A DNA stretch of 64,000 bases from Eledone cirrhosa (GCA_964016885.1 OZ024741.1:127100001-127164000), one strand, 5' to 3'; shown: positions 4,186 through 61,875, counted from the first letter of the stretch. Program-made: numbers and translations. Notes: generated by a model not told the origin, from the letters alone.

Positions 4186-4683
4186 AACGTGTTTTGCAAC
4201 GGGTCACATTGTGGCTCAATGAAAAGTTAATAAATTAAATAATCAGAGCTATATATCATAAAACATGTCTATAGAATCACCAGATAAAATATATACCATT
4301 TCCTCTCCCAATTAGCATAATTAACTATATAAAAAATCGAATAGACCAGGCTATAAGAATAAGGTTTCTATGAAGAAATCTCCAACAAATAACCGAAACT
4401 AGCCCTTGGCGTCGGCCGCAACCGAATATTTATCGAATATTTCGACAGCGTAATCGCCCAGTCAATTAAACAGAATTAGGTGTAAAATAAGCTATGAGAA
4501 AATAGAATACATTGCGACCGACGCCAAGGGCTAGTTTCGGTTATCTGTTGGAGATTTCTTCATAGAAGCCTTATTCTTATAGCCTGGTCTATTCGATTTT
4601 TTATATAGTTAATTATGCTAATTGGGAGAGGAAATGGTATATATTTTATCTGGTGATTCTATGGACATGCTTTATGATATATA
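4186..4683. mobile_element. Foldback element, probably PLE-derived, abutting (TA)n
   Basis: Inverted arms 4250-4421 and 4512-4683; extra tail 4186-4249 on the left arm only. Confidence 0.75.
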
Positions 4684-5221
4684 TATATATATATATATAT
4701 ATATATATATATATATATATATATATATATATATATATATAATTAGCTTTAATATATATATACATATATATAAGTGTGTGCATGTATGTAAGTATATGTG
4801 TGTGTGCCTGTGTATGTATGTATGTGTGTGTATACGGGTGTATACACGCATTTATTTATGTGTGTGTTTACGACTTTTGTTTATATAATTAATGGCTTTT
4901 AGGTTGTCTTTTGAAAAGTACAATGATATGTTTGTATGAAAAGATGGTCGTGTTTAAATTATGTTGAATTACTCACATATTAGTTATTAATGTCAAAACG
5001 ACTCAACTTCTTGTGCATCTAGCCGTTCATTTAGCTAACTATCTAGACATGTATTTATTGTATTTAGTCATCAATAAATAGGAACACATATTAATGTTTA
5101 TAAACGCCTCTCTCTCTCTCTCTCTCTCTCTCTCTCTTTCTCTCTCTCTCTCTCTCTCTCTCTATATATATATATATATATATATATATATATATATATA
5201 TATATATAGGAGTAAGTAAGA

Positions 5222-5314
5222 CCCCGACGGCTGAGCTCAAGCCGTTTCGACGGCTAATTCTGTACTGAATGAAAAATCAGTTCTGGTATTTAAATAGCCG
5301 AACTTGTCAAGGGG
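5222..5314 (-). ncRNA. Type I hammerhead ribozyme with U3-A8 variant core
   Basis: cccc-TTGACAA-g..cggcta...tagccgtc-GAAACGGCT-tgagctc-AGCCGTC-gggg. Confidence 0.75.
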
Positions 5315-5457
5315 CAATTCCATATATGGTCAAAGAGATAATCACCAGGATTGGTCATCCCACAAGGTAGTAGTAATTCAGCGAAGGCAAGTTGGTGGGG
5401 GAGGTAGCCAAACCTGCCAGTAGGAGAAAAGGGGAGAGGGGGCGGAGTAGACCCATA

Positions 5458-6023
5458 ATACCATCAAACTCTCTTACAGCACTACACCTAACTTCGCACA
5501 AAACATCGTCTCCTCCAACAACAAAAAACTCAACCCCGATGGAAGAAACAACCCAAATAGCAGTGGAGAGCCGACCAGGAGGTGCAACTGTCCTGATAGA
5601 TCAGGTTGCCCCCTCGACAACAGATGCAGAGACCGTAATGTGATCTACCAGTGCAACGTGAGCACGGACACCTTCAACAAAGCCTATATAGGATTGACCG
5701 CATGCGACTTCAAGACCCGGCTATACCAACACAGACATACCTTCCGAAACCCGGCCCGGCGTCACGCCACTACACTTTCGGGCCACATATGGGACCTCAA
5801 GGAAAACAACATCAACTATGATCTCACTTGGAAATTACTGTCCAGAGCCAACTCCTACACGGGAGGACGCTGTCCGTGCAATTTATGCTCGGAGGAAACG
5901 TTACAAATGCTGTTTTCGACGGACCAACTCCTTAACAAGAAAGATGAACTGGTTACTGCATGTAAACACCGATTACGTAGGACTTACCTCGCCCTCAAAC
6001 CCCATAATGACCCGGGGGGGTAG
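5458..6023 (+). pseudogene. PLE C-terminal Zn motif + GIY-YIG endonuclease (Naiad-like)
   Basis: NTIKLSYS...CNCPDRSGCPLDNRC..VIYQC...YIGLT..FKTRLYQH...CNLCSEE. Confidence 0.9.
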
Positions 6024-6456
6024 CGTATAACACCCCACTTGCCTATTTTGTAATGGGTAACCCCTGCTTGCCTATGGAGACGTAAGATCTTCCTTTACAC
6101 TTTTTTTTATCGATCCAGTATCTCTTTCTTCTTTTTCCCTTTTTCCCTTTTCTCCCTTTTTCCTGTATTAATTTTCCGTTCTTTATTTTTAATTCGTACG
6201 ACTTTTCATGTAGCTTGGATAAGACATTTTGTTTCGTGGCGGTACCCTTAGAGTTAGCACCATTATTTTTTTGCGGGACCCTGAATTACATTCTCGTACT
6301 AGTCTACTTTCTTGCACTGGGTGGTTGCTGGCCCGGTGTTTGGGGTAGAAACCGTTATTTATTTATTTTTTTCGTGGTGGTCTCTGTAGTATTCCGACCC
6401 CCCCCCCCTCTGTTGACCCGTCACCGTACGATACACGCACTTATACCCCGCATAAG

Positions 6457-6640
6457 GGTGGAGTGGCAGTATCGGTAGAGGGTCGGACGCCATGCTTTCC
6501 AGCATAGTTACGTCCCTTTACGATCTGAGTTCAAATCCCGCCGAGGTTGACTTTGCTTTCATCCTTACGAGGTCGATAAAATAAAGTACCAGTAATGCAC
6601 TGGGTAATTGCTGGCCTTGTGCCTAAAGTAGAAACAATTA
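6457..6640 (+). mobile_element. tRNA-derived SINE
   Basis: A-box-like TGGCAGTATCGG and B-box GAGTTCAAATCC; multiple copies in the window. Confidence 0.85.
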
Positions 6641-6865
6641 TATATATATATACATACATACAAATATTATATTTGTACATATGATATATGCATATGATAT
6701 ACATATAGATAGATAGATTTTTTATGTTTTTGTATTTGTCTATGCCTGTAAGCTCGTCAGTAATATGTTTCAATATTTAAAGAGCTCTCTGTACAATCGT
6801 AAAAATGGGGAGAGAAGACATATTCTAAAACATTGATGCCATGTACATATATATAAAAATACATA

Positions 6866-7287
6866 TATGTGTGTGTGTGTGTGTGTGTGTGTGTATACAT
6901 ATGTATGTATGTATATATATATATATATATACATATATATAAATATATATACATATATATATAATTTACACATATATATATATATTTATATGTATATGTA
7001 TTTATATATATATACGTATATATACATACATATATATATATATATATATATATATATATATATATATATATATATATATATATATGTATATATGTATATA
7101 TATTTATATATATATATACGTATATATACACACATATATATATATATATATATATATATATATATATATATATATATATATATATATATATATATATATA
7201 TATATATTATATATATATATATATATATATATATATATATATATATATATTATATATATATATAGTGTGTGTGTATATATATATATA
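6866..7287. repeat. (GT)n/(TA)n microsatellite complex
   Basis: Direct reading; source of spurious YIYI ORFs. Confidence 0.95.
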
Positions 7288-59692: not shown

Positions 59693-59880
59693 TAATAATT
59701 GTTTCTACTTTAGGCACAAGGCCAGCAATTACACAGTACATTACTGGTACTTTATTTTATCGACCCCGTAAGGATGAAAGGCAAAGTTAACCTCGGCGGG
59801 ATTTGAACTCAGACTGTAAAGGGACGTAACTATGCTAGAAAGCATGGCGTCCGACTCTCTACAGATACTGCCAATTCCCC
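59693..59880 (-). mobile_element. tRNA-derived SINE
   Basis: Reverse complement of the 6457 family. Confidence 0.85.
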
Positions 59881-59889
59881 TTTAATAAT

Positions 59890-60408
59890 GAAGTACAAAT
59901 CAACAAGCTAGAATTTATTTCATTTATTCATTATACAATTGCCCTTATATATATTTCGATGATAACTGTTATGCAACAGTTATGATATAACTCGTCGGCG
60001 CTTTGAGAAAGCAACACCAATGATCAGCCCGGGACATATCAATGAATTGAAACAGCAGGAGAAATCTTTTTTTCTTCCTGTTCTTTCTGTTCAACTATTA
60101 GCTGTCTGATAACTATTGCATAAGTTATCATCGAAATATGTAATATATATAACAGTAATTGTATAATGAATTAATGACGTAAATTATAACCTGTTGGCTT
60201 GTATTTAATTATATATATATATGTATATATAAGAAATGTAAATCTGAGTTTTTTTTAATATTGATAATAATATTCGAATAAGATCTCAACACAATTTCAT
60301 GCCATCTAAGGTTTCTTCAACCAGCATAGGACATATATATTCTATATCAACAATATACTGATTGAAGTTTGAAAGCATAGGTAGCATGATTTTGTGGTGA
60401 GATCTTAT
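59890..60408. repeat. Two old imperfect inverted repeats (59890-60210, 60278-60408)
   Basis: tcattatacaatt..ttcgatgataact versus agttatcatcgaa..aattgtataatga; aagatctca.. versus ..tgagatctt. Confidence 0.65.
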
Positions 60409-60484
60409 ACATACAATATATTTTGACTCTTTTTCCTTGATCTATTCTTCGGAAAATCTTATATGAATGTGTGTGGGGGGTGAG

Positions 60485-60630
60485 GTGTAGACATAGCTGT
60501 GTAATTATGGAGTTATGATTCTGGGTTCAGTCTCATTGAGCGTCACTTTAGGCAAGTGTCTTTTACTATTGCCTCCGGGTTGATCAAATTTACTTGTGAA
60601 GGTAGACAGAAACTACAGAGAAGCCTGTCG
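60485..60630 (+). mobile_element. Degenerate SINE
   Basis: GGTTCAGTC B-box-like motif, TTAGGCAAGTGTCTT, ends GAAGCCTGTCG(TA)n. Confidence 0.55.
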
Positions 60631-61176
60631 TATATATATATATATATATATAGTGCGATGTATATGTGTGTTCATTTCCTCTAACTTAGCGGTTCAATAA
60701 TATATGTACCAGATTTCAAATAATAATTTCCCGAATCGATATGATCGCTAAATTGTATCAACGTGCTACTCCAGCATTGGTGCAGTCTAATAACTAAACC
60801 CATTAAAAGACAAATATACGTATGCATATGTATGTGTTACTGAGTTGGTGATGGGGTGGGTGTATGGGTGGCTATTTTTAATGAGAAACTTTCAAAATTA
60901 AATTTCCGGTAATTAAAATTTCTGTGTTGTTGGTGTATAAGAAATATTGGAAATAGTGGCGAAAAAGCAATAGATCTGGTAACAACGCAATCAATAATTA
61001 TACATTGATTTTCATATATATATATGTGTGTATATATATATATATGTGTGTGTGTATATATATATATGTGTGTGTATATATATATATATATATATATATA
61101 TATATATATATATATATATATATATATATATATATATATATATATATATATATATATATATATATATATATATATA

Positions 61177-61350
61177 TGAAAAGATTCAGGACCCCGACGG
61201 CCGTTTCGACAGCTAGATCTAGTTCGGATCTAGCTGTCGAAACGACCGGGGTCCTTAATCTTTTCATATTAGCCTCTCTGCTACTCCAAGTATGGAGTAC
61301 TCTGGTGGGTTTTTACCTTCTAGCTTGTTTTTACCACACCCTATCTGATA
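61177..61350. mobile_element. Family B-related mini-foldback
   Basis: Hairpin 61177-61268 with GAAACGGCCGTC-GGGGT half-core; right-only tail. Confidence 0.8.
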
Positions 61351-61374
61351 TATATATATATATATATATATATA

Positions 61375-61875
61375 TATCAATGATATTAATAAATGGAAAC
61401 TATATTTATAAAACCATATTTATTCTATTATATATATTTCAAGGGTACCAAAACTTTGGTGCGCACTCATCAGATAAAATACAAAATTTGTTTTATAAAT
61501 AGTGACATACCCAGGAATCAGACCTTAACAGTTCAGGTTCCGTTTGCATAGTGAGAGAATAGAGGTAAAAAGAAAAAAGGGGAAGTAAGGAAAAAGAACA
61601 AATATTTCAAATTATGTTGATGAATATGCAAATGAAGTTGCTGATTCCTGGGTATGTCACTATTTATAAAACAAATTTTGCATTTTATCTGATGAGAGCG
61701 TACATAAGTTTTGGAACCCTTGAAATATATATATTAGAATAAATATGGTTTTATAAATATAGTTTCCATTTATTAATATCATTGATATTATACTCCAGAA
61801 AATCTGTCGAGTGCTTTGAATCTGTTATAAATATATTTGTTGAATTACCAACAAATTAAATATCCCTTTGCTTAT
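61375..61875. mobile_element. Family A foldback with hammerheads at 61421-61481 (-) and 61682-61741 (+)
   Basis: Arms ~61375-61521 and ~61642-61788; right-only tail. Confidence 0.88.

Follow-up and report, generated by a model that had tools for sequence, protein, structure and literature searches.

How does a mobile element come to lie in a chromosome as two head-to-head copies of itself, with a tail at one end of the pair and none at the other? The question is raised repeatedly by a 64-kb stretch of Eledone cirrhosa DNA (GCA_964016885.1 OZ024741.1:127100001-127164000; hereafter the window, 64,000 nucleotides (nt) in length), which has a GC content of 36% and is rich in (TA)n and other microsatellites. 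It belongs to a genome of 3.0 Gb, and its element content may be cephalopod-like, to judge from PMC8557442. By their sequence, its foldbacks are insertions of Penelope-like elements (PLEs) in (TA)n, comprising autonomous families of the Hydra clade and tandem, retrozyme-like dependents. The origin of the inverted pseudo-long terminal repeats (pseudo-LTRs) and one-sided tails of PLEs is stated as unresolved in PMC8557442 and PMC11167929. The tail-less end of a foldback is referred to below as I and the tail end as T. The two are nearly always paired with one another, a copy of the same short motif lies 3' of each, and the foldbacks are probably best explained by priming of reverse transcription at two sites on one RNA.

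An earlier, sequence-only reading of the window had proposed a single architecture for all foldbacks, namely head-to-head arms with a tail on one arm, the other arm ending at an internal TAT(A) fused to (TA)n. On self-comparison of the window after masking of simple repeats, followed by reading of the sequence, all 12 of the sites then listed proved to be head-to-head inverted pairs with one arm tailed and the other fused to (TA)n, and the seven junction strings quoted for tail-less arms were each found, read on the tailed arm, at 4246(-), 19376(-), 21344(+), 61782(+), 36645(+), 40888(+) and 41184(-). The families had been called unrelated, whereas the 12 sites represent seven families, A (21196, 59156 and 61177), B (21530 and 61375), C (19290 and 50340), D (40575), E (4186), F (36533 and 42474) and G (41010), of which A, B and G have Hydra-clade protein motifs in common. 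A 13th foldback had been overlooked: the region 39959-40250, chosen as a counter-example to the rule, proved to conform to it, and belongs to an eighth family, N, at 39846-40250. Tails in the window span 64-185 nt.

Counts were drawn from the best 30 loci for each of the eight families, retrieved with arm-only queries except in family A, and from eight arbitrarily placed 100-kb blocks. Because an arm-only search with family A returned nothing, the family A loci over-represent tailed copies, a bias that does not touch the block counts. A block on C14 without (TA)5 runs yielded nothing, and this interval (C14:20000001-20100000, L291-L300) is apparently a tandem satellite of roughly 80 base pairs (bp). 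As the sequence-only reading required, the ends of the arms are fixed rather than scattered: of 275 TA-fused 3' ends in families A, B, C, D, E, G and N, 269 map to I (-9 to +12) or T (+/-10), in a count whose probe spanned only I-70 to T and from which family F was excluded, 19 of its 46 ends blurring into an AT-rich run. Of 981 ends assigned with a looser end library, 827 fall at one or other of the two sites and 154 fall elsewhere.

The two sites are also paired with unusual strictness. Calling by family gave 102 I/T, five T/T and no I/I foldbacks among 107 rows, and on inspection two of the T/T rows are real, the other three being a mis-chain (L028), a foldback that is actually I/T, and a later mirrored duplication (L221). 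A segment method, in which both ends between (TA)n runs are assigned, gave 225 I/T, five T/T and three I/I of 233, with single ends at 165 I and 182 T. The blocks alone gave 67 I/T, three T/T and two I/I of 72, with 47 single ends at I and 67 at T, and a chance expectation of about 48% I/T. With single ends so nearly evenly split, independent choice of sites predicts that about half of the foldbacks would be I/T, as against about 96% observed. A scan independent of the library gave 82 asymmetric segments and 27 symmetric ones, with at most about five of the latter being possible primary cases; most of the 27 symmetric calls were set aside as internal TA runs or later flank-mirroring duplications. 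Flanks mirrored beyond (TA)n were seen in L221, L007, C9 block 23609-24141 and C2_down block 86659-87308, suggesting later palindromic duplication of arm and flank together. Two-ended insertions number about 70 in the 0.8 Mb of blocks.

The rule does not extend to all foldbacks, as had been claimed for it. Real T/T cases exist (L020, C4:42818 and C3:36429), and the inverted repeats at 31830-32046, 57360/57891 and 59885/60212 are, on viewing, of other kinds. The first of these is a foldback of the 3' end of a repeat resembling a long interspersed nuclear element (LINE), related to 46199-48327, with no tail seen. No rule of target-site duplication emerged from the flanks, direct and inverted duplications being found in 4 and 8 of 101 cases as compared to null values of 3% and 2%.

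The tailed arm had been read as the product of priming at the RNA's 3' end, a reading that does not stand. Site T is read through by full-length copies of A (L322), B (L321) and G (L329) and by multimers of C and D, and in A and G the open reading frame (ORF) begins shortly after it. Among raw reads from two further samples, those that depart from the family C reference at T number 486 and 356, and others continue. Thus the tailed arm does not locate the 3' terminus of the RNA, barring a cut in the RNA at that point. Before leaving the repeat, the element reads TAT, TATA or ATAT at I as well as at T, and TA alternation of at least 3 nt is present at 26 of 38 sites versus 8.6% of background positions. 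This alternation, together with the in vitro behaviour of PAc, the Poseidon element of Anolis that nicks both strands and extends them (Frangieh et al. 2024; PMC11167929), lends indirect support to two other parts of the sequence-only reading, that a fixed internal AU site is where the tail-less arm begins and that both strands of the palindromic (TA)n act as primers.

Sites I and T share a longer pattern on their 3' side, consisting of TAT(A), 3-10 nt, RCTC, a variable loop and YYGAGY, mostly followed by RC. In the RNA, RCUC-loop-YYGAGYRC is predicted to form a stem-loop through pairing of RCUC with GAGY, and the motif is a candidate loading site for the element protein. Full-length copies of A (3.8 kb, with 68 TATA/ATAT 4-mers) and B (with 145) have the motif only at I and T, and the first pair of the stem covaries (A-U 8, G-C 10, A-C 3, G-U 1; Fisher p 0.0075). 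Family E, which looks tandem, reads through T (C2_down block 77237-78003; L142) and the motif that follows is the variant TCTC..GAGA, which supplies a third covarying pair.

Because the motif was defined on these families, tests outside them are needed. Among 26 de novo families with tails of at least 55 nt, a set that includes several relatives of the window families and several misses that are probably not PLEs, the motif is present at I in 13, as compared to 0 of 207 upstream windows and, after shuffling, 0.5 on average (maximum 4). A held-out set consisted of 77 related loci from metagenome contigs, at about 38% protein identity, of which 39 have at least 190 nt upstream of the ORF. The motif occurs in 35 of these 39 5' regions, and twice in 23 of them at a spacing of 43-91 nt (median 62), whereas it occurs in none of the 39 reverse strands and in 9 of 413 ORF windows; a looser pattern had a high background, matching 22 of 50 reverse strands. 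Second copies of the metagenome regions provide 11 informative ends, seven of which fall 1-5 nt before motif 1 (four) or motif 2 (three), while one reads through and three lie elsewhere; seven further copies stop at contig ends. The motif can also be recognized by eye in published Hydra-clade consensus sequences from coral, sea cucumber and copepod, at the 3' ends of Hydra-2_Amil and Hydra-2_Ajap and the 5' end of Hydra-1_Ajap, with a near-match in Hydra-1_Crog (PMC8557442).

The autonomous partners in this system were identified by their protein motifs. A full-length copy of family A has a Met-started ORF of 720 amino acids (aa) that combines reverse transcriptase (RT) and GIY-YIG in one frame and includes RWR (as LRWR), DKT (as SDKT), YRDD, the CxCx5C linker, YIG, CxxC and CxH; family G has IRWK, apparently with DKT in the same region (L329/L330), and both G and B carry the CxCx5C linker and the C-terminal motifs. 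Homologues number 1455 at E<=1e-20, and a set of 121 proteins possess RW[KR] in 115 cases, DK[TS] in 120, [AS]DKG in none, the CxCx5C linker in 115, CxxC in 112 and CxH in 116. The motifs of the window families match the published definition of the Hydra clade, which consists of RWK, DKG modified to DKT, the CxCx5C linker, and CxxC plus CxH around conserved E and N (PMC8557442), and the assignment to the clade follows these motifs. A Pfam scan found no match for these proteins, so that the domain names likewise follow the motifs. The direction of the ORFs in B, A and G points the 3' ends outward, the forms seen in L321, L322 and L329 are those of the pseudo-LTRs of EN+ PLEs (a partly tandem arrangement, truncation at the 5' end, an inverted copy of the 5' part and, optionally, a tail), and insertions adjoin (TA)n across families.

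Families C and D are of a different kind, consisting of non-coding tandem monomers with periods of 559 and 537 bp in arrays of up to six units, the longest Met-started ORFs being 32 aa in C and 50 aa in D. A pattern search located the type I hammerhead core CUGAUGA..GAAA in both, with one of two D monomers matching; by this pattern the canonical core is present in B, C, D and E and was not found in A or G. No hammerhead family appears among the best 150 of 224 Rfam matches, those listed being microsatellite and hairpin noise. Families C and D are thus retrozyme-like, and putative non-LTR retrozymes. Retrozymes are known as PLE dependents (bioRxiv 10.64898/2026.07.22.740005; PMC7229834), and C and D resemble metazoan non-LTR retrozymes in their tandem non-coding monomers and hammerhead core (PMC7229834), but differ in forming inverted I/T foldbacks and in bearing the Hydra-clade motif, which names their likely mobilizing partner.

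With moderate confidence, two-site twin priming on one RNA is taken as the best model for the foldbacks. The element protein, acting as a dimer, would nick both strands of (TA)n while its two protomers sit on the two stem copies of one RNA. Each nicked 3' end would pair over 2-7 nt with the UAU(A) preceding its stem, priming reverse transcription once at I and once at T, and both complementary DNAs (cDNAs) would extend toward the RNA 5' end. PLE RTs are not known to have RNase H. The T-primed cDNA would stop before I, leaving no overlap, or displace the I-primed cDNA, or copy another monomer of a multimeric RNA. The two cDNA 3' ends would then be united by end-joining, often with short templated inserts, and the tail would represent the spacing between the two signals.

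Does one RNA suffice? The sequence-only reading had held that the arms overlap, unlike those of L1 twin priming, and that two templates or two passes are therefore needed. Overlap is indeed found in 72 of 89 pairs (about 80%), but the other 17 do not overlap, the start of the tailed arm lying in the tail itself or no more than 15 nt from I, and at 42474 the overlap is only about 12-15 nt. The inference of two templates is disfavoured by several observations. Partner arms are more alike than non-partners in five of seven families, with within-pair and between-pair differences of.032/.093 in A,.021/.052 in B,.001/.006 in C,.012/.031 in D and.009/.047 in E. Their 5' ends co-match, lying within 15 nt of each other in 40 of 89 pairs as compared to 29.7 on permutation (p 0.0002), and in 13 of 58 pairs as compared to 6.6 when family A is left out. 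Joins between different families account for seven of 240 two-ended segments. The pattern points to one RNA, or one source locus, for both partner arms. The 5' ends also pile up at fixed spots, from -51 to -70 relative to I in A arms and from -175 to -178 in B arms, the B query selecting arms of at least about 147 nt; the pile-ups possibly mark where transcription starts or where a cut or stall occurs. Two candidate signals were rejected. In family A, 14 of 27 pairs differ by G-to-C between their tailed and tail-less arms, which was considered as a sign of two templates; the difference reflects ascertainment by a query carrying the base, which is present in none of 11 readable tailed arms in the blocks. 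The second signal, a discordant block in family G, is an alignment artefact.

Common variants and 5' ends in partner arms are equally a property of self-primed fold-back, the rival that survives best although it is itself unlikely. Here one cDNA, or an antisense RNA, would copy itself into a hairpin, the GIY-YIG endonuclease or a second primer would resolve the product at the other TA site, and the motif would be read in single-stranded DNA. Both components have precedents, self-priming having been published for head-to-head palindromes (PMC3846280) and endonuclease resolution for the tail (PMC8557442), and at 19660 the window holds a perfect palindrome with a 1-nt centre. However, a T-primed cDNA cannot template an I arm that is longer than itself (by more than 30 nt in 28 of 89 pairs) or that does not overlap it (17 of 89), and an I-primed cDNA lacks the tail; self-copying of one cDNA therefore cannot account for those pairs. 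A hairpin loop would moreover require the I arm always to be the shorter, whereas among 26 near-equal pairs it is longer in seven, equal in 10 and shorter in nine. Fold-back may account for a subset of foldbacks. Junction inserts are present in 42 of 65 cases, some of them alignment slippage and many copied from adjacent element sequence, and long microhomology is rare, a combination that fits the end-joining of two cDNA ends predicted by two-site priming. Junctions of family A often have an A run facing a T run (window 21256-21288; L015, L020 and L029), as if both cDNAs had stuttered on the same U tract.

If each of the two nicks were primed by a separate ribonucleoprotein with an RNA of its own, at I in one case and at T in the other, overlapping arms would be most simply explained, and four I/T segments of different families do exist. 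The window itself has a possible chimera at 39737-39847, where the tailed arm of one family lies head-to-head with an I end of family F of roughly 20 nt, and a variant with two transcripts of one locus in one cell is also conceivable. Nevertheless, the seven mixed-family segments are divided four I/T to three T/T, partner arms have subfamily variants and 5' ends in common, and nothing in such a scheme constrains I to pair with T, making it improbable. Still less credible is trimming after insertion, whereby T/T foldbacks lose one tail through recombination of an internal TAT(A) with flanking (TA)n; the microhomology at I and the few existing T/T foldbacks are in keeping with it, but the youngest families, C and G (copies 99-100% identical), are already I/T, longer internal TA runs are unused, and the near absence of I/I, the single I ends that are as common as T ends, and the conserved motif 3' of I go unexplained. 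Perfect palindromes are a known artefact of long reads, and the raw reads, in an analysis that skipped site I, gave no joints above threshold and no read spanning a foldback centre, but an assembly or long-read fold-back artefact is scarcely plausible when arms differ by 0.1-4% with private mutations, later inserts occupy one arm only, each family has fixed ends but each locus its own junction, and T ends recur in raw reads of other samples and the same ends in short-read metagenome contigs.

Several points weigh against two-site twin priming itself. Within-pair similarity is lacking in G (.039/.032, confounded by the alignment artefact) and N (.039/.037), and where present could reflect later conversion; the 10 near-equal pairs that end at the identical base are explained equally well by fold-back. 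The end library was derived from asymmetric segments and so is biased toward I/T. The motif was defined post hoc, its strict form misses I of C (where the variant GTTC..GAAC is found), F and G, and T of G, whole-region folding forms the stem at some sites only (z -1.3 to -3.4, with I of A and of D among the exceptions), and the metagenome copies, being mostly G-C, add little covariation. The non-Hydra PLE families F01, F07 and F24 also pair I with T, with tails of 39-60 nt, in the absence of the RCUC/GAGY motif; examples lie at C4 block 83348-85549 and C2_down block 1985-5445, and a paired signal of their own is possible. In vitro, the strands did not differ in start site with PAc, whose site is AC-rich and non-homologous to the target; PAc belongs to another clade, but no coupling was seen (PMC11167929). 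Empty-site alleles sought for 180 foldbacks gave nothing usable, and a pre-existing (TA)n target is consequently assumed. The mechanism as a whole is read from genomic sequence.

Much of the architecture is familiar from related systems. For the Hydra clade, Craig et al. (2021) described (TA)n targets, an inverted 5' copy and a tail often at one end only, with an octopus member, Hydra-1_Obim, in the supplement (PMC8557442). The insertions here are alike in their C-terminal GIY-YIG, RW(K/R), DKT, CxCx5C linker, CxxC, and CxH near the C-terminus, in their (TA)n targets, and in the inverted 5'-truncated copy and one-end tail, but have tails of 64-185 nt as compared to the published 30-40 bp; neither an I/T pairing count nor a duplicated stem motif is described in the available parts of PMC8557442. 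PAc initiates at two internal positions on its RNA, which delimit the tail, requires RNA 3' of the start, uses an AT-rich target and is predicted to be a dimer (PMC11167929), all of which, with its both-strand nicking and extension, resembles the case made here. It differs in that its start is an AC-rich stem-loop inside the ORF, non-homologous to the target, with no difference between strands (PMC11167929). The sites described here are UAU(A), match the target over 2-7 nt, lie upstream of the ORF start and each have a motif copy, and the two arms take opposite sites. In L1 twin priming, attributed to Ostertag and Kazazian in 2001, a second-strand nick reportedly primes a second cDNA on the same RNA to give a head-to-head inversion. 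A second cDNA on the same RNA is common to both systems, and 17 of 89 pairs here have the non-overlapping form; the differences are that the second site is fixed rather than opportunistic, that the first is internal rather than at poly(A), and that most arms overlap.

What has been published before thus includes inverted copies, tails on one side, (TA)n targets and internal initiation at two sites. Strict I/T pairing, target microhomology at both sites and the duplicated motif were not found in the literature, in a search that was thin on subscription papers, older PLE reviews, Repbase notes and the PAc supplement, and the available parts of PMC13282606, PMC12910113, PMC8969392 and PMC13486585 have nothing on the I/T rule. 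As far as searched, therefore, novelty lies in the strict pairing and in the duplicated signal seen across species, while the architecture itself is a known PLE trait.

The individual foldbacks of the window illustrate the range of arm lengths and orientations. Family A lies at 21197..21425, with I on the left at 21197, the A-run/T-run centre at about 21256-21288, a tail at 21346-21425 and the stem motif from 21354; a second copy at 59157..59346 has its tail at 59157-59236, arms at 59237-59288 and 59290-59346 and I on the right, and an A-related foldback at 61178..61347 has I on the left, arms to 61265 and a tail at 61266-61347. The family B insertion (21534..25286) has T on the left with a tail at 21534-21625, arms at about 21626-22589 and 24208-25286, and I on the right; between the arms is a broken plus-strand RT and GIY-YIG ORF (22669..24026) with the CxCx5C linker, which orients the 3' ends outward. 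A B-related foldback at 61378..61872 has I on the left, arms at 61378-61521 and 61641-61784, a tail at 61785-61872 and the stem motif from 61792. Family G (41007..42248) has a 185-nt tail (41007-41191), a long tailed arm bearing a minus-strand GIY-YIG remnant at about 41874-42180, and a short I arm (42181-42248).

Family C occupies 19268..19931, with a tail at 19268-19381, arms at about 19386-19659 and 19661-19931, a 1-nt centre, I on the right and the GTTC..GAAC variant; a C-related foldback at 50345..51074 has its tail at 50345-50434, arms at 50430-50663 and 50841-51074, and I on the right. The foldback of the 537-bp tandem retrozyme-like family D (40577..40977) has I on the left, arms at 40577-40636 and 40829-40890, and a tail at 40891-40977. 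In family E (4186..4683) a tail at 4186-4249, with T on the left, precedes arms at 4250-4421 and 4512-4683, the I end joining (TA)n at 4677. Family F lies at 36538..36724, with I on the left, arms at 36538-36589 and 36590-36645 and a tail to 36724, and again at 42479..42620, where overlap is near zero, the partner of the I arm (42479-42529) being an arm of about 12-15 nt plus tail. In family N (39846..40250), a tail at 39846-39958 is followed by arms at 39959-40096 and 40113-40250, and (TA)n on the I side has been replaced by a later insert at 40256-40438 resembling a short interspersed nuclear element (SINE). This SINE-like repeat of ~190 bp has inserted repeatedly within or next to these elements, and only in one of the arms (also at window 6453-6638 and 59698-59888, and in L092, L186, L190 and L195). 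Elsewhere in the window, an inverted pair of PLEs with DKG and GLKF motifs (non-Hydra; 25617-28360 and 42685-45328) is 14 kb apart with flanks alike, and is likely a later inverted duplication, and minus-strand LINE-like ORFs at 7877-11518 and 1-1706 (endonuclease and RT; a 989-aa open frame) represent two copies about 70% alike.

For the biology of PLEs, the analysis offers a quantified rule, I/T making up about 96% of pairs when about 50% would be expected, and a candidate cis signal, roughly 10 conserved bases that occur in two copies in many divergent elements; together these make the mechanism testable with a published in vitro assay. Through the shared signal, retrozyme-like tandem repeats become linked to one specific autonomous clade, annotation gains a predictor of element boundaries, and the high frequency of two-ended insertions in this genome makes them a large source of palindromes. 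In its fullest form, which is put forward tentatively and with prospects somewhat short of balanced, the reading is that a duplicated stem-loop in Hydra-clade PLEs and their retrozyme dependents would load two RTs on one RNA, that double-nicked (TA)n would be primed at two programmed internal sites, that the tail would be the spacer between loading sites, and that the inverted pseudo-LTR would be a regular two-ended product conserved across several animal phyla. If the two-loading-site reading is true, the short motif would be a portable cis signal for PLE-driven insertion.

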